Origin: a virus
Lineage: Duplodnaviria > Caudoviricetes
Strand: one strand, 5' to 3'
DNA: 64,000 nucleotides
IMG/VR virus record: IMGVR_UViG_3300021387_000025
Coordinates: 1-64,000 of that record
In this document: positions 15,265-21,869 of the stretch, in pieces
How the letters are laid out: the number at the start of each line of letters is the position of its first letter
Position numbering within the stretch: position 1 is the stretch's first letter
The notes under the pieces: generated by a model
Told to the model about the DNA's origin: nothing
Databases searched by the model: none
What the model saw: only the letters and a program-made list of their open reading frames with translations
Position numbers and translations under genes: made by a program

Positions 15265-16641
15265 TTACTCGCCTTTAGTAACTGTAATTGATGTATCGCT
15301 CTTAAGAACTGTAACTTGATCCTTACTATTCCAAGCAACCGCGCCATTAGTTGCTGCCGCAGTTAAATAAGCGTTTGTCGCGCTACTTTCTACAACAGAA
15401 ACCTTACCGGTACCACTTGAAGTTCCCTTTGAAACAGTAATTGTGGGCTGTGTGATCGTAAAAGTAGAACCGGATCCAATAACATTTGCTGTACCATTAG
15501 CTGTAGCATCGGTAGCGACAGAAATGACACCAGTCCCAGCCGTTGCACCAGTCGCAAGAGCGATCGTAGGTTGCGTAACTGTAAAAGTAGCATCTGCGCC
15601 AATAACAGAATCTGTAGAAGAAGCACTAACATCAGTAGCTACCTCTGCCCCGCCACTAGTTGCAAGAGAGCCGGTCGCAAAAGTAGTTGCAGTAGAATTT
15701 TTAACGGGAACAGCTACATCTGAAAAAGTATATTGAGTTGTAGACTAAGTATTCATAGAAGCTGCCCCAATTGTTAAAACTTCATCAGTTACACTGCAAC
15801 CTTTCAACCAATCTGTATTATTAGTAGTTGCTGTACCGGCGCCAGTGGCTGTTGTCTAACTAGTTCCAGCAGTAGCTTTAGAAGCAGTAGTTGTGGTGCT
15901 ACCAACACCATAAATCGTACTTGTTGCCAAATGACTTTTTGTAGCACTTACGCCAGTAACAGCAGTTACAGTATCTTTAGAATTCCAAGTTGTGTTGGCC
16001 CCCGATGCGGTAGCTTTGATATTTGTTTTTGTAGCGCTCACTCCAGTCAATACTGTCTTTTGGTCTTTAGAATTCCAAGCTGTGTTCGCGCCAGTCGCAC
16101 TTGCGCCGATATAGTTCGTAGATTGGCTCAAAGATCCAACCACACTAACTGCGCCAGTTGAACTAGTCTCAGATGAAGAAAGCGTTACACTTGGCTGTGT
16201 AACTTTAAAAGTAGCATCACTACCAATTACTGTATCAGTTGACTTATTAAGAGTTACATTAGTAACGACACCAGACAAATCAATTAAAGTATCGCCAATC
16301 TTCTCCCAAGTTTTTGTACTTTCTCCAATAGTAACATATTCATCAAATAAATCTAATGTTCCAGCTTGAGTCTTGGAATAAATAAGATAAAACTTACCAA
16401 CAGTGTCCGTACCTGCCTCTAATGTACCAGTCGCGCTACTTGCGCCATTATTATAGTAAACAACCACTCCAGCAGGAATTGTAGCTAACTTCGCAGTCGT
16501 TGGCGCTGAAGTTGCAGCATATTCTGCAGCAGTCCATACAATGTTAAACGATACACCACCAGCGATCATCTATCTGGCTACAGCATCTTTTATATCATAT
16601 TCATTACCAGAGGGTAATTTAATTTTACTAATATCCGCCAT
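15265..16641 (-). CDS. Thr/Ser/Ala-rich repeat fibre protein (3 TAG=Gln)
   Basis: MADISKIKLPSGNEYDIKD start, three WNSKD repeats and three VIG..ATF.VTQP-type repeats. Confidence 0.8.
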
Positions 16642-16650
16642 TATTTCTCC

Positions 16651-17016
16651 TTAATTTCTGCTAAAAATTAAAGTTTCGCCCTATAATTCATCATTTAATA
16701 TTTCATAGGCGTCATCAATGTCAACTTTATGATTCCAAAATTGACGATCTTCATTACTAACATGAATTGAAGAATCGTTAATATGTGTTAATAATTTATC
16801 TCTTATATCGTCTCCCACAAATGGAAGATCCTGAACATAAGCCTTACCATCACCTATTTTAAGAGTAGGTATATTTATTACTGTTCCGTTTTGTTCAATC
16901 TACTACCCATCTAAATAAATAATAACTTCTCCTTCAAGTGGTATAAAGCCTCGCGCAGCATTCCAATTTGCAGTAGTATCTCTTTTTAATTTTATTCTTG
17001 TATTTATTGTACTCAT
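16651..17016 (-). CDS. Mtd/hyaluronidase N-terminal-like fibre anchor domain protein (3 TAG=Gln)
   Basis: RIKLKRDTTANW..PLEGE..KIGDG..DLPF and HV...DRQFWN motifs. Confidence 0.75.
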
Positions 17017-17038
17017 TTCATACCTCATAATATTACAA

Positions 17039-17839
17039 TTAAGTAATAACTGTAGTACTTGTGCCGCAATCTATTAACATTCCTTCTTCTATTGAAATTA
17101 CGTTATTCGTAATATCAATTCCATTTCCTGCTGCGTAAGTACTGCTATGGGCTGAAATATAATTAATTAAATCTGCCTGATCTGTTATATTTCCTGTAAT
17201 ATTTCCCCACTCAGCAGAAGTTTGAGTATTAGAAATAATTACTTTTCCCTATTGATTAATTGCTATAGATATTCCATCGCCGGCATTTTCAAAAGTAAGT
17301 TTACTTTGAATATTTAAATCTTCAAGACTACTATTCCCTTCTAAAGTTGTATTGTTTATTGATGGTTTATTAGTTAATGAATTATAATTAGTTGAGGCCA
17401 TACCATTAATTATTTCAAAATCTGTAACATGGCCATCTGTAAATGTTATTCTATAAGTATCGACCCTTACATTTTCATCAGTATAACGACTATTTATTTT
17501 TTCAATAAAAGCTATACCAATACCAATGTCTCCTTTTTCGCCCTTATCACCTTTTTCTCCCTTTTCGCCCTAAGATCCCTGCTCTCCCTGCGGGCCGGGT
17601 TCTCCTTTAGGTCCTTCTGGTCCCCTGATAGACACAGGATCAGGATTAGGTAAATTACCATCATTTGTCCAAGAAATAATTCCTTCCGAAGAAACATCTG
17701 GTATAAAAGTCGCGCCCTTGATGCCAGGAATGATTTCTGGCTTAAATTCTACCCCAGTGACTGGATCTTGAATTATATCTACTATCGTTTCTGGAGTATT
17801 CAAAATTTCAACTTCTACAAGCTAACGAGGCTTCTTCAT
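17039..17839 (-). CDS. Collagen-repeat fibre protein (3 TAG=Gln)
   Basis: GPEGPKGEPGPQGEQGS-Q-GEKGEKGDKG, NYNSLTNKPSIN, WGNITG and YAAGNGIDI motifs. Confidence 0.8.
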
Positions 17840-18166
17840 TTATCCCTCCTCTGGCTTACTAAATAACGTTGGATGCATTCGTAAGGTCACAATAGGAGTT
17901 TCAGGTATCGCGCCGCTTATTAATGTTATTTTTATATCCATATAAAACAATTCATTTTCGGCAAAAAGCCATGTATCTTCTTCTGTGAATGGTATTTCAA
18001 AAGTCTAACATTCATCATTATAAGTTACATCGCCTGGATAATTCTTAATTAGTATATCTGGGGCTAAATGGGATTTTTCCTATTTAAAAAGAAAAACAAT
18101 TGATTGAATATCTTCGCTGTTGAGTTTAATTCGAACGGGCAGGGTCGTCGTTGTTCCATTTTTCAT
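17840..18166 (-). CDS. Small structural adaptor-like protein, MKNGTT type (2 TAG=Gln)
   Basis: GTTTTLPV...FTEEDTWLF resembles 8631..8939 and likewise precedes a collagen gene. Confidence 0.65.
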
Positions 18167-18189
18167 TTGCGCCTCCCGCGATTAATTAA

Positions 18190-18393
18190 TCACAAAACTA
18201 TATTACCTGTTTCAGCATACCAGTTATTATCATTGCCCATATAATACGTGGCACCTTCTTTTAATACATAGACACGATCACCAAATAATGCTTTAATTTC
18301 CTAAAGATTGGATTCTTCCATAGCGTAGTATAATCGGTGCTGCGTATTTGCACGATTAAATGATTCAACTAAAATATAATCTGTTTCAGCCAT
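18190..18393 (-). CDS. Small hypothetical protein, first gene of the fibre/lysin operon (1 TAG=Gln)
   Basis: AAAGGAG SD; 67 aa; GDRVYVLKEGATYYM...W. Confidence 0.65.
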
Positions 18394-18408
18394 TATATTT
18401 CTCCTTTT

Positions 18409-18483
18409 AAAAAAATAAGGTATACGCATGGTATACCCTTCATTGAATAGCAAAAATTAACAAAAGTCGCGGTTACACCATGC
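18409..18483 (-). promoter_or_regulatory. Leader with an intrinsic terminator and a possible antiterminator
   Basis: Minus-strand AAGGGUAUAC-CAUGC-GUAUACCUU-AUUUUUUU just before the SD. Upstream GCAUGGUGUA is complementary to UAUACCAUGC. Confidence 0.55.
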
Positions 18484-18506
18484 TAATATTTAATCTTCCA
18501 TATATA

Positions 18507-18533
18507 AAGTAGAAAACATAAAAGAAAACTTTA
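18507..18533 (-). promoter_or_regulatory. Putative phage-specific (late) promoter TAAA-N17-CTACTT
   Basis: Motif at the head of the fibre/lysin operon. Confidence 0.6.
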
Positions 18534-18557
18534 AAAAGATGAAGAAATAAATGGAAT

Positions 18558-18586
18558 TTGACTTTTAAAAAATTTTTTAGTATACT
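18558..18586 (+). promoter_or_regulatory. Sigma-A-type promoter
   Basis: TTGACT-N17-TATACT; AAAGGAG SD before 18630. Confidence 0.75.
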
Positions 18587-18629
18587 ATTAATAGAAAATG
18601 GATAAATATCCTTTGAAAGGAGTTTTGAA

Positions 18630-19280
18630 ATGAATCAAAATTATGGAATTGATGATATTAAATCATTAGACTTTAGAGAAGGAGTTCGTGATTGGTGCGT
18701 ATATAAACATATATGTAAAATTACAAATAAAGTTTATATAGGACAAACCAATAATATTTCAACACGCTGGAAACCTTCTGCTTATAAAAACTGTACCAAA
18801 TTTTATAATGCCATTCAAAAATATGGTTGGGACAATTTTGACCATATTATTCTTGAGTCAAATTTAACATTACAAGAAGCTAACGAAAAAGAAACATATT
18901 ATATAGAATTATACAATTCTATTAATGACGGATATAATTTAAATTATGGTGGTTTGAATAAATTAGCTTCAGAAGAAACTAAAAAGAAAATGAGTGAGAC
19001 TCGTAAAGGAGTGCCGCACTCAAAAGAACATTCAGAAGCTATAAGTAAGGCACTAACTGGATATAAATAGTCAGAAGAGCATAAAAGAAATAATAGATTA
19101 GCTCAGCATCGTAAACCAGTTCAATGTATTGAAACTGGAGAAATCTATGATAGTTTAGCTGAAGCTGGTAGAAAAACTGGAATTTTACCAGAAACAATAA
19201 GTAGATAGATTAAAGGCAAACAAAAGACTACACAAGGATTACATTGGAGATTTATTGAAGATGAATTATACAGCGAATGA
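18630..19280 (+). CDS. GIY-YIG homing endonuclease with NUMOD-type C-terminal modules, fused to a GyrB-like 20-aa N-terminus (2 TAG=Gln)
   Basis: CVYKH..KVYIGQT..RW..GYNL, SEETKKKMS / HSKEH repeats and KPVQCIETGEIYDSLAEAGR..GLHWRF. TGA at 19278-19280. Confidence 0.85.
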
Positions 19281-21114
19281 TATAGTAAGCCTTAGCGCAG
19301 GACGCGCTTTTCGTGAAAAAATTGGAATGTATTTATCAGCGGATAGGCAAGAAGCTATTAATCTTGGACTTCGAGAATTAATTGTAAATGTTCAAGATGA
19401 ATATGAAGTATATAAACCAGAAAATCCATTACTTCATATTGAACTAAACACAAAAACACGAACAATTCAAGTTGCAGATAATATGCGCGGCATTCCTGTT
19501 GGTATTCGTGATGATGGTATTAATTCACTTACTGCCGCTTTTCTTATCCCTCATTCGGGCGGAAAACATACCGAGGGTGTATATTCTAGTGCTGTAGGTA
19601 TTAATGGCGAGGGATCAAAGATTGTTTGCCATACCGCAAAATGGCTTGAGGTAGAGGTATATCGTGATAAAAAACGATATACCCAAAGGTTTGAATCTGA
19701 TGATGAAGGCGCGCGAGCAGTAACTCAAATAATTGAACATGATCATCCTAATACACATACTGGTACTGTCATTACTTATGTACCAGATCCAAAGGTTTAT
19801 GGAGACATATTTATCGACATTGACAATTTACGAAAGACTCTTAATGAAATGTCAATGTTTTCTACTGGTTTATGTATTGAACTTTGCGTTGATGGACAAA
19901 CAGAAACTTTTTATTCAAAAAGTGGACTAATTGATGGACTTTCAAAAGAAAATCGTCTCTCAAAACCTTTTTCTTATCATTATGAAACAGATGACTGTAA
20001 AGTTGATTTAGCTTTACAGTGGGTGAGCAAGCACGGTGTTATTAAAGGCTATGCGAATAATTTATTTATGCCAGATGGCGGAGCATTTATTAGCGGTTTT
20101 AAATCTTCGTTAACACGAACATTTAATTCACTTGCAAAAACCAAGTATGACGGTGATACAATTAGAGACGTCTTAGATGGATTTGTTAGTGTAAAGGTTA
20201 AATTGGGTCAATTTACAAATCAGCAAAAGACGGCATTAGCAAATCCAGAGGCACGAACAGCCGCGTCTACAGCAATTAGTGACTGTTTAAAAGAGTTTGC
20301 GTTAAAAAGAAAAAATGATTTTGAACAAGTCATCGAATTGCTTCATAAAGTGGCTCGCGCTGAAGCTGCGGCTGAAAAGGCGCGCCAGCAAGTTTTAAAC
20401 GCGGTTAAAGAAGTCGAAAAGAACCAGAAAAAGAAAGTCTTTGCGTCAGATAAATTGAAGGATGCAGAATTTTTGGGAGAAAACTCAACTCTTTTAATTG
20501 TAGAAGGTGATAGTGCGATGGGCGGAATGGCTCAGGCGCGAGATTATACAAAATATGGACTTTTAGCTATTCGCGGTAAAATTATTAACTGTTTATCTAA
20601 CCCAGAAGAAAAAATCTTCCAAAATGAAGAAATTAAACTTTTACTTAGCGCAATGAATATTACGCCTGGTAAATATAATGCATCTAAGTTAAGATATGGA
20701 AAAATTGCCATTTGTACCGATGCAGACAGCGATGGCGGGCATATAGGACTTTTAATCATGGCGGCGCTTGCATATTTAGCACCGGAGTTTATAAAAGAGG
20801 GACGTCTTTGCTGGCTCCGTTCACCTTTATATATCATTGATAATAAAGGAAAAGAAACTTATTACTTCACTGATGAAGAATTTGATAAAGTTAGAAAAAC
20901 AGTCAAAGGCGTTGTGACAAGAGCAAAGGGGTTAGGCGAAATCCCGGCAGAAACAGCCCATGCATCTATGTTTACGCCCGAATTTCAAAGAATGGAAGTT
21001 TTACAGTATTCTGAAGACGCATTCGAGCTGTTATATAAGTTAATGGGAATTGATGTTGAGCCAAGAAAAGATTTTATTATGAAGAATATTGACTTTTCGG
21101 AGGTTAGAGAATGA
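19261..21114 (+). CDS. gyrB: Type IIA topoisomerase B subunit (GyrB/ParE)
   Basis: GMYL, ELIVN, DNMRGIP, HSGGK, VEGDSA, IRGKIIN, TDADSDG and KGLGE motifs; no TAG. Confidence 0.93.
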   Translation: MNYTANDIVSLSAGRAFREKIGMYLSADRQEAINLGLRELIVNVQDEYEVYKPENPLLHIELNTKTRTIQVADNMRGIPVGIRDDGINSLTAAFLIPHSGGKHTEGVYSSAVGINGEGSKIVCHTAKWLEVEVYRDKKRYTQRFESDDEGARAVTQIIEHDHPNTHTGTVITYVPDPKVYGDIFIDIDNLRKTLNEMSMFSTGLCIELCVDGQTETFYSKSGLIDGLSKENRLSKPFSYHYETDDCKVDLALQWVSKHGVIKGYANNLFMPDGGAFISGFKSSLTRTFNSLAKTKYDGDTIRDVLDGFVSVKVKLGQFTNQQKTALANPEARTAASTAISDCLKEFALKRKNDFEQVIELLHKVARAEAAAEKARQQVLNAVKEVEKNQKKKVFASDKLKDAEFLGENSTLLIVEGDSAMGGMAQARDYTKYGLLAIRGKIINCLSNPEEKIFQNEEIKLLLSAMNITPGKYNASKLRYGKIAICTDADSDGGHIGLLIMAALAYLAPEFIKEGRLCWLRSPLYIIDNKGKETYYFTDEEFDKVRKTVKGVVTRAKGLGEIPAETAHASMFTPEFQRMEVLQYSEDAFELLYKLMGIDVEPRKDFIMKNIDFSEVRE

Positions 21115-21413
21115 GTGATTTTGAATATTCTGCAAAAAAAATTAATAGATTAATAGAAGAATATAATCTTTCTCCAGTTATAATGAGCGGAGTTCATAAC
21201 GACCTAAAAAAGTTAAAGCCAATAATAGAAAAAATATATGATGAACATATCTTTAATCTTTCTTATTGGGAAAATGAATGTGCTTACCATGGTTGGGATT
21301 GGTCAAAAGATAATGGTAAAATGAAAAATATGGCGATTATTACTGATGAAATCACCAAAAAATTTTTAGAAATATACGCATTAATTTTATCAGGGTTAGG
21401 AGAAAAGATTTGA
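21111..21413 (+). CDS. Hypothetical protein
   Basis: ATGA overlap with gyrB; 100 aa. Confidence 0.65.
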   Translation: MSDFEYSAKKINRLIEEYNLSPVIMSGVHNDLKKLKPIIEKIYDEHIFNLSYWENECAYHGWDWSKDNGKMKNMAIITDEITKKFLEIYALILSGLGEKI

Positions 21414-21568
21414 AAAAAGAAGAAAATAAACAATGTCCTCTTTTCGATTTTTGTAATGCAAAAACCGCTATGTGTAGAGTGTGTTTGCCAGATGAAAGTT
21501 GTTACTGGTATAGATGGTTTAAAAAACTTATTGAAGAAAATGAACAAATATCAGAATTTAAAAAATGA
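21410..21568 (+). CDS. Small Cys-rich hypothetical protein
   Basis: TTG start overlaps the previous TGA; GGAG SD; CPLFDFC...CRVC...CYWY; 52 aa. Confidence 0.5.
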   Translation: MKKEENKQCPLFDFCNAKTAMCRVCLPDESCYWYRWFKKLIEENEQISEFKK

Positions 21569-21585
21569 AAAAATCATAGAAAAAC

Positions 21586-21614
21586 TTGATAAAATTTTAA
21601 ATTTATGATATTAT
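21586..21614 (+). promoter_or_regulatory. Sigma-A-type promoter
   Basis: TTGATA-N17-TATTAT. Confidence 0.6.
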
Positions 21615-21638
21615 TTAAAATAAAGAAAGGAGAAATAA

Positions 21639-21869
21639 ATGAAATTTCTATTAAATGGTTGCGATATTAGTTTTTATGCTGAAGCACCTGAAGATATTAC
21701 ATTAAAAGATTTATTGAAACAATGTGATAGGATAGTGCCTGATTGGTGTGCTTGTGGAATTTGTTCTAGCAACCATAAGGACGAATACACGGATATATAT
21801 ATTACTTATGACGATGTTTGGAAAGCAAATGAAAGGGTATGTTGTCAAATAAAGGAGCCGAATGAGTAA
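21639..21869 (+). CDS. Small Cys-rich hypothetical protein
   Basis: AAAGGAG SD; 76 aa. Confidence 0.65.
   Translation: MKFLLNGCDISFYAEAPEDITLKDLLKQCDRIVPDWCACGICSSNHKDEYTDIYITYDDVWKANERVCCQIKEPNE

Follow-up and report, generated by a model that had tools for sequence, protein, structure and literature searches.

How does a homing endonuclease gene come to begin with the N-terminus of the gyrase B subunit (GyrB), and to be followed at once by a complete gyrB? The question is raised by positions 18,630 to 21,114 of a 64,000-nucleotide (nt) stretch of viral DNA (Duplodnaviria; Caudoviricetes; positions 1 to 64,000 of IMG/VR record IMGVR_UViG_3300021387_000025), which we call the window. An initial annotation of this DNA had proposed that an endonuclease invaded gyrB at codon 20, leaving a duplicated gyrB start and a 7-nt repeat at the junctions. 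From comparisons with related loci, we consider it probable that the arrangement is a homing cassette that replaces one end of a gene, carried by a TAG-recoded rumen phage of about 120 kb.

A mosaic gyrB behind a retained type B start

We compared the window gyrB with 80 related loci from a scan of viral contigs. The gyrB N-termini of these loci form two classes, type A, present in about 25 loci and in the window gyrB, and type B, present in about 55 loci. A type A protein starts with M(N/T/S)YTANDIVSLSAGRAFR-EKIGMYLSADRQ and a type B protein with M..YGIDDIKSLDFREGVR-TRIQMYLG or, in the fuller pattern and with variants, M..YGI(D/N)(D/E)I(K/Q)SL(D/S)F(R/K)EGVR-(T/E)RIQMYLGSDD. The window gyrB, which has 617 codons from its start at 19261, begins with MNYTANDIVSLSAGRAFR followed by EKIGMYLS and is type A. 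In terms of these classes, the open reading frames (ORFs) of the locus divide into the following parts.

18630..18689, + strand: stub corresponding to codons 1-20 of a type B gyrB, in frame with the endonuclease (assigned by likeness to locus L040)
18630..19280, + strand: endonuclease ORF of 216 codons when TAG is decoded as Gln; ends with TGA at 19278-19280; 20-nt overlap with gyrB
19261..20350, + strand: putatively imported type A gyrB module, about codons 1-363, encoding the ATPase and transducer domains
20351..21114, + strand: conserved 3' part of gyrB, encoding Toprim and tail; proposed downstream homology arm

Compared block by block, type A and type B GyrB proteins are 15-47% identical over residues 1-360, which comprise the ATPase and transducer domains, and 85-100% identical from about residue 361. 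The window module is 57-100% identical to type A loci and 15-47% identical to type B loci per 40-residue block, and residues 1-360 are closest to L001-L019. The 3' part shows 85-100% amino-acid identity to both classes (about residues 361-520) and 75-81% nucleotide identity to type B loci, and homology of the window DNA to eight type B loci starts sharply at 20347-20359. This 3' part and the downstream gyrA are closest to the type B phages L038, L040 and L028; over GyrA residues 1-250, identity is 97% to L038 and 90% to L040. On the other side, window positions 16502-18685, through codon 19, are homologous to the type B phage L040, and we found no type A homology there among the loci compared, save a 69-nt match to L004 near 16585-16653. 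Homology to the related endonuclease genes of L072 and L005 begins at 18692. The type B stub and flanks, the type A front and the start of endonuclease homology at 18692 together place an insert from about 18690 to about 20350 in what, by these comparisons, is a type B-like backbone that has retained its first 20 gyrB codons. The endonuclease thus lies between a remnant of the native gene end and a full gyrB with a foreign end, and the front of this gyrB has a history discordant with that of the remainder, as is found in gene-end-replacing elements.

Both N-terminal modules have the sequence features of GyrB or ParE. The first 360 residues of the window GyrB match ParE/GyrB 43K fragments in the PDB (4url, E=1e-34), with the ExxxNxxD, DNxRG, GGK and Q-x-K loop motifs all aligned, and the type B module is likewise a bona fide GyrB/ParE fragment with ATPase motifs (E=5e-47 against the PDB). 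Over the whole window protein, the Pfam DNA_gyraseB and Toprim models score above their cutoffs, and the C-terminus domain reaches 28.9 bits against a cutoff of 29.8.

The endonuclease ORF starts at 18630 with MNQNYGIDDIKSLDFREGVR, and its 20-residue leader is identical at 18 of 20 positions to the GyrB N-terminus of the endonuclease-free locus L040. At the DNA level, identity is 83% to L040 (18616-18685) and 97% to L043/44 (18637-18673). In protein P0002, from another data set, the endonuclease is 97% identical to that of the window and the leader matches L040 at 20 of 20 residues. Tyr5 and Ile10 of the L040 GyrB align with Tyr5 and Ile10 of Escherichia coli GyrB in a PDB search. Judged by sequence, the leader is a genuine type B GyrB N-terminus, with a likeness far beyond chance. 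The Pfam and PHROGs models of the endonuclease family all begin at residue 22 and leave residues 1-21 uncovered. The initial annotation was right that the leader aligns without gaps to the downstream gyrB start (7 of 17 residues identical) and that endonuclease-free gyrB genes starting ..YGIDDIKSL.. should exist, as they do in L028, L040 and L043/44; its leader is not one that resembles no GyrB or travels apart from gyrB, since it matches GyrB and its carriers are linked to gyrB. The proposed duplication of the GyrB start does not hold, because a resident type B stub stands beside a foreign type A allele. We discarded duplication in situ on the grounds that the two copies belong to deeply diverged classes, each of which is found elsewhere. 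The idea that a divergent gyrB 5' end was imported survives in that the imported end belongs to the other allele class; its size is about 360 codons, not about 20.

The supposed junction repeat is present at both of its reported positions.

18685..18691, + strand: TTCGTGA copy 1, incidental by sequence
19310..19316, + strand: TTCGTGA copy 2, incidental, in the matching codon register of the type A start

Deleting the 625 nt between the copies would indeed give an in-frame ...GVR-EKIGMYLS. The heptamer, however, has 15 copies in the window, the third of those noted here lying at 19505, and is absent from the corresponding junctions of L161 and L081/L005; it falls on homologous (V/F)-R-(D/E) codons of both gyrB starts. 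Its commonness and its absence at other junctions rule out both a target-site duplication and a junction by microhomology. Among about 25 endonuclease-free type A alleles, none has the form predicted for the excision product, in which a type A body follows a type B leader with the joint at R20.

Captured start signals and recurrence of the fusion

The signals that would serve the fused gene, and the parts of the enzyme, are as follows.

18558..18586, + strand: predicted sigma-70-like promoter, TTGACT-17 nt-TATACT, 10/12 matches
18616..18622, + strand: Shine-Dalgarno (SD) sequence AAAGGAG, 7 nt before the ATG at 18630
18693..18938, + strand: GIY-YIG catalytic domain, residues 22-103 (Pfam)
19077..19256, + strand: C-terminal module, residues 150-209, presumed to bind DNA, ending in a G.HWRF motif
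19246..19249, + strand: GGAG within the HWRF codons of the endonuclease, 11 nt before the gyrB ATG

The promoter-like element occupies the position of the gyrB upstream region in L040, which also has AAAGGAG at the equivalent place ahead of its gyrB start. By this correspondence, the predicted promoter is the former gyrB promoter, now 5' of the endonuclease. The window offers the endonuclease no in-frame start codon from the end of the leader to the GIY-YIG strand, which makes its translation dependent on the former gyrB ATG. The earlier proposal that the endonuclease took over the promoter and SD of gyrB is therefore borne out, the sequence being L040-like from upstream to codon 19-20 with no start of the endonuclease's own. 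The unfused relatives L072 and L094 have their own SD and start; in L072, GGAG is followed by a GTG start and the protein begins MEQQTWCVYKH. At the other end of the endonuclease gene, the GGAG at 19246..19249 is likely, from its placement, to be a gyrB SD brought by the cassette, and a CAT TGG AGR arrangement lies 7-8 nt ahead of gyrB in L072, L005, L094 and L161.

Upstream, a near-identical relative from an independent bovine-gut run lacks 102 nt within window positions 18494-18597. The promoter-like hexamers fall within the missing stretch, which stops about 30 nt short of the endonuclease ATG; the promoter region thus varies between close relatives. Between the tail-fibre genes and the promoter of the endonuclease is a terminator-like hairpin (window 18417-18439, - strand).

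The enzyme is a GIY-YIG endonuclease with intact motifs. Pfam PF01541 matches residues 22-103 (E=1.3e-8, 35.4 bits against a cutoff of 22.6), PHROG 314 'homing endonuclease' matches residues 22-211 (E=2e-45), and Y25, Y36, G38, R46, E88 and N103 are invariant among 36 homologues, giving a catalytic domain with the conserved Tyr, Tyr, Arg, Glu and Asn. The C-terminal module is conserved throughout the family, as is its G.HWRF motif. The last 60 residues have weak matches to PHROG 314, PHROG 4538 and PDB 8b6e (E about 1e-3), and NUMOD3 scores 18.1 bits, under its cutoff of 20.4; by analogy with I-TevI-type enzymes, we infer that this module binds DNA. In a cultured-phage collection, the locus had no relative; the sole matches, 97 nt long, were to endonucleases of Staphylococcus phages.

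The association of this endonuclease with gyrB recurs. In every related locus with downstream sequence available, the family lies directly 5' of gyrB. A protein search recovered about 35 clusters in which a type B leader of 18-22 residues is joined at a common point, ...GVR-x-WC(V/I)YKH, and a few fused endonucleases have short leaders of 6-8 residues. The full set of leader, endonuclease and type A gyrB is seen a second time in locus L161, from a different study, and L081 comprises promoter, leader and endonuclease. A 576-nt contig of an independent bovine-gut run covers 18597-19168. The L081 contig ends within the endonuclease, and position 1 of the contig of its near-relative L005 is the exact stub-endonuclease junction (TAAGATCT-TGG); these ends suggest branching of the assembly graph, with several leader variants in the samples.

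The C-terminal tail of the endonuclease overlaps the gyrB start, and we took the class of the downstream gyrB from this tail as a proxy, in fused and unfused forms alike. Type A and non-A tails numbered 23 and 5, respectively, in fused forms and 7 and 36 in unfused forms (Fisher p = 6e-8, with rows that are phylogenetically non-independent). Endonuclease bodies that are 93-97% identical bear leaders just 56-78% identical, which match different resident type B alleles, and leader identity is related to body identity with a Spearman rho of 0.37. Near-identical bodies with differing leaders are expected if each recipient keeps its own start at transfer. Residues G18, V19 and R20, next to the junction, are degenerate in some fused forms (P0005, P0007, P0015 and P0026), and Y5, I10, S12, L13 and F15 of the leader are invariant in 30 fused forms; degeneracy at the junction together with an invariant distal leader fits crossovers inside the leader.

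A proposed homing cassette and competing explanations

Endonuclease-free type B alleles encode RIQMYLG (CAR ATG TAT CTT GG), the CAR codon of which directly follows the fusion point. All endonuclease-linked gyrB alleles lack this codon, with RIN or (I/V)P in its place in type B genes behind unfused endonucleases and KIG in type A. In these loci, which are related to one another, the pattern is consistent with the Gln codon of RIQMYLG being a candidate recognition and immunity site, and its absence from endonuclease-linked alleles may go with a resistant imported type A allele and a sensitive native type B allele.

In the mechanism that we propose, the mobile unit would be a free-standing GIY-YIG gene and, directly 3' of this gene, the type A gyrB ATPase/transducer module of roughly 1.1 kb. 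During a mixed infection, the endonuclease would cut a sensitive type B gyrB, probably near codons 18-27 (GVRTRIQMYLG). The upstream side of the break would pair with the type B stub and promoter of the donor, the downstream side would be resected as far as the conserved Toprim-coding region, and through repair the recipient would acquire the endonuclease along with a type A module that is presumably resistant. Its own first ~20 gyrB codons would stay in place, fused in frame to an endonuclease from which the original SD, start and first 4-5 codons would be missing and whose expression would rely on the promoter, SD and ATG of the old gyrB. Translation of the incoming gyrB would begin at its own ATG, served by the GGAG embedded in the last conserved codons of the endonuclease, and splicing would be unneeded. 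What we observe directly is the mosaic with its boundaries and recurrence, together with the intact motifs and the alignment of TAG with Gln; cleavage, allele specificity, transfer direction and timing are deductions.

One endonuclease-free locus resembles a product of such an exchange. L004 (2380-2600), which is type A, is near-identical to the type B loci L052 and L078 as far as ATGAGTTA and changes class after codon 3. Deletion of stub and endonuclease between two similar gyrB starts would give exactly this pattern, which is consistent with the remnant expected from endonuclease loss after invasion. A comparable switch, past the gyrB SD and the first 3-4 codons, separates L059 (1-260) from L002, L010 and L018.

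Several observations weigh against the cassette. Clean switches between types A and B at the gyrB start occur where there is no endonuclease (L004; L059 versus L002/L010), so ordinary recombination could contribute. The sampled loci are just 75-85% identical to the window at the nucleotide level in the flanks; the transfer therefore cannot be recent, and the direction assigned to it depends on the sampling of loci. The upstream homology arm would be short, consisting of about 60 nt of stub and a variable promoter region, and on the downstream side about 1 kb would have to be resected. In a quick, unfinished tree, fused forms cluster but are non-monophyletic, with at least 3 changes forced, so either fusions recur or the endonuclease genes themselves recombine; in addition, the tails of 5 fused forms give no sign of a type A start. 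The host of the phage is uncultured, which also counts on this side.

The class switches seen where there is no endonuclease are the main support for an explanation by ordinary phage mosaicism, in which a passenger endonuclease, maybe inactive, was fused by chance and does not drive the exchange. Endonuclease-free loci change class exactly at the gyrB start, many type A loci are endonuclease-free, and the sampled relatives reach only 75-85% identity in the flanks. A passenger would not, however, be expected to be strictly linked to the gyrB start with invariant catalytic residues, and near-identical endonucleases behind different leaders point to recent repeated movement. Fusion is also strongly associated with type A, and endonuclease-linked and endonuclease-free alleles differ at one conserved codon. 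We regard this explanation as credible but unlikely. A metagenomic origin raises the further thought that type B and type A phages were joined in assembly, since metagenome contigs break at the junction and L005 begins exactly there. The like architecture of L161, the bovine-gut contig covering 18597-19168, and the proteins P0002 and P0003 from other sources exclude an assembly artefact, and we attach next to no weight to it.

It is very improbable that the leader is a first gyrB exon joined to EKIGMYLS by a group I intron, by bypassing or by excision at TTCGTGA, although the 625-nt deletion would be in frame. No group I intron or other relevant RNA family was found in 18000-20000 with Rfam at E up to 10, the endonuclease ORF occupies the whole interval, and the endonuclease is not one encoded within a group I intron. 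The gyrB that follows has its own SD and ATG, and its type A N-terminus is complete and identical to that of endonuclease-free relatives; none of the natural alleles compared places a type A body behind a type B leader at R20. The heptamer on which excision would rely is common in the window and unconserved at the junctions of other loci. None of the contigs of four DNA runs skips 18692-19316, where patchy coverage makes this weak evidence.

A different role for the leader would be as a captured GyrB arm retained for endonuclease function, for example docking on the GyrB ATPase domain. The five residues invariant in 30 fused forms (Y5, I10, S12, L13 and F15) favour such a role, as does the alignment of Y5 and I10 with residues of the E. 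coli GyrB arm, which we take to complete the ATP site of the partner subunit (GyrB 43K structure). Fresh sampling of the leader from working resident genes, once per transfer, would account for this conservation just as well. Moreover, G18, V19 and R20 are degenerate in P0005, P0007, P0015 and P0026, short-leader and unfused relatives exist, and the leader is modelled as a low-confidence coil (pLDDT, the model's confidence score, of about 59) in the predicted structure of the fused enzyme. We judge a retained arm quite improbable. We see a slim chance of a bolder combination, a domain-replacement drive that moves through phage populations by eliminating one version of the gyrase ATPase domain in favour of another of about 30% identity and that carries a GyrB arm (Tyr5/Ile10) that docks on or poisons the GyrB of a competitor. 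Of all these accounts, the homing cassette is the one that we carry forward.

Recoding, neighbouring genes and known systems

The endonuclease gene contains two in-frame TAG codons and lies upstream of a TAG-free gyrA, the partner of gyrB in a type IIA topoisomerase.

19068..19070, + strand: in-frame TAG, codon 147, just before the C-terminal module; Q in 29/30 homologues and CAA in L072
19206..19208, + strand: in-frame TAG, codon 193; Q in 26/30 homologues and CAA in L072
21862..24198, + strand: gyrA; Pfam DNA_topoisoIV E=3e-106; TAG-free

In the standard code, the endonuclease product would stop at residue 146, before residues 150-209. The phage genome contig is 119,955 bp long with 29 tRNA genes, including one tRNA(CUA), and TAG is a frequent sense codon (59 times in one 2807-codon ORF, for example) that does not occur in gyrB and gyrA. 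TAG codons at Gln positions and a tRNA(CUA) gene are what code 15 (TAG-to-Gln) entails. The two TAGs would probably delay full-length endonuclease until the phage tRNA(CUA) is made. Borges et al. (bioRxiv 10.1101/2021.08.26.457843) proposed that recoded stops delay an intron endonuclease in an early gene. Their case, like ours, has an endonuclease with in-frame recoded stops within an early, recoding-free replication gene region; it involves a group I intron and TGA, whereas here a free-standing fused ORF and TAG are involved. The sole tRNA(CUA), at genome positions 119240-119327 (- strand), is 88 nt long and of type II shape; its long variable arm would be uncommon in a Gln acceptor and contrasts with the alignment of the TAG codons to Gln in homologues.

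Three small ORFs lie between gyrB and gyrA in the window (21111-21869). More distant GIY-YIG genes occur directly 3' of gyrB, before gyrA, in L017 (5718-7514), L018 (3903-4178), L036 (5912-6172), L065 (5691-5945) and L068 (5891-6172); the topoisomerase operon is a hot spot for GIY-YIG endonuclease genes. In L088 and L089 (4045-6574), the 3' half of gyrB is in three pieces separated by ORF-less gaps of about 360 and about 270 nt, the first break falling in the Toprim DxD region. Rfam gave no match to these gaps at E<0.01, and they may be ORF-less introns or other inserts.

By analogy, the arrangement is a 5'-end mirror image of two known kinds of element. In the WHO elements of Torulaspora and Lachancea, the endonuclease gene is accompanied by a resistant version of the FBA1 3' end, and the native end that this version displaces stays behind as a homology arm (Coughlan et al. 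2020, PMC7282813). There, as in the window, the endonuclease lies beside an essential gene and carries a replacement end, the old end is left as a fragment, and the target is chimeric, with two parts of discordant histories. WHO elements replace the 3' end and leave an unexpressed fragment, whereas in the window it is the 5' end that has been exchanged, and the old fragment both forms the translated N-terminus of the endonuclease and provides the promoter, SD and ATG. The WHO enzyme is intein-like and has a yeast host, in contrast to a GIY-YIG enzyme in a phage, and the WHO alleles have 85% nucleotide identity, compared to about 360 codons at about 30% identity here. The mORFs of fungal mitochondria, in Allomyces atp6 and Glomus atp6, atp9, cox2 and nad3, provide foreign C-termini (PMC3630166). 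In these cases too, an endonuclease ORF (LAGLIDADG, or GIY-YIG in atp9) brings a foreign gene end without an intron, and the native end is left behind the endonuclease ORF. They replace C-termini of tens of codons, whereas in the window an N-terminal half was replaced and the start signals were captured.

Among phages, the free-standing Seg and Mob endonucleases of T-even phages are known for intronless homing and marker exclusion (PMC2988022). Seg enzymes share with ours a GIY-YIG domain and a C-terminal DNA-binding module (presumed here), and their genes adjoin their targets; they spread by double-strand-break repair with co-conversion of flanks, the pathway that the mechanism proposed above would also use. 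Seg genes are, however, intergenic, with their own starts and no fusion to a stub of the target, and their co-conversion tracts carry allelic polymorphisms rather than a separate domain class. The intronless insertions of mobA in T4 topoisomerase II gene 39/60 and of mobE in Aeh1 nrdA (PMC2988022) likewise place an endonuclease in a phage type II topoisomerase or other essential gene without an intron. They split the gene into two polypeptides; here gyrB remains undivided, as the element brought a full front half to replace the old one. In the literature on homing endonucleases with gyrB or gyrase in phages, of which our coverage is incomplete, we did not find this arrangement.

If the homing cassette is correct, a homing endonuclease can move a whole enzymatic domain pair of an essential gene, beyond a few flanking polymorphisms, and can live off the promoter and start codon of its target gene. 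For annotation, loci of this kind carry a warning: the gyrB-like start that comes first is that of the endonuclease, a gene that is cut short at TAG by gene callers using the standard code. The locus also offers a testable system, in which a single enzyme can be set against two natural allele classes, with the target predicted near codons 18-27. Gene-end-replacement homing would be extended to the 5' end of a bacteriophage gene, and a concrete mechanism would be at hand for the sharp domain-level mosaicism of phage replication genes.

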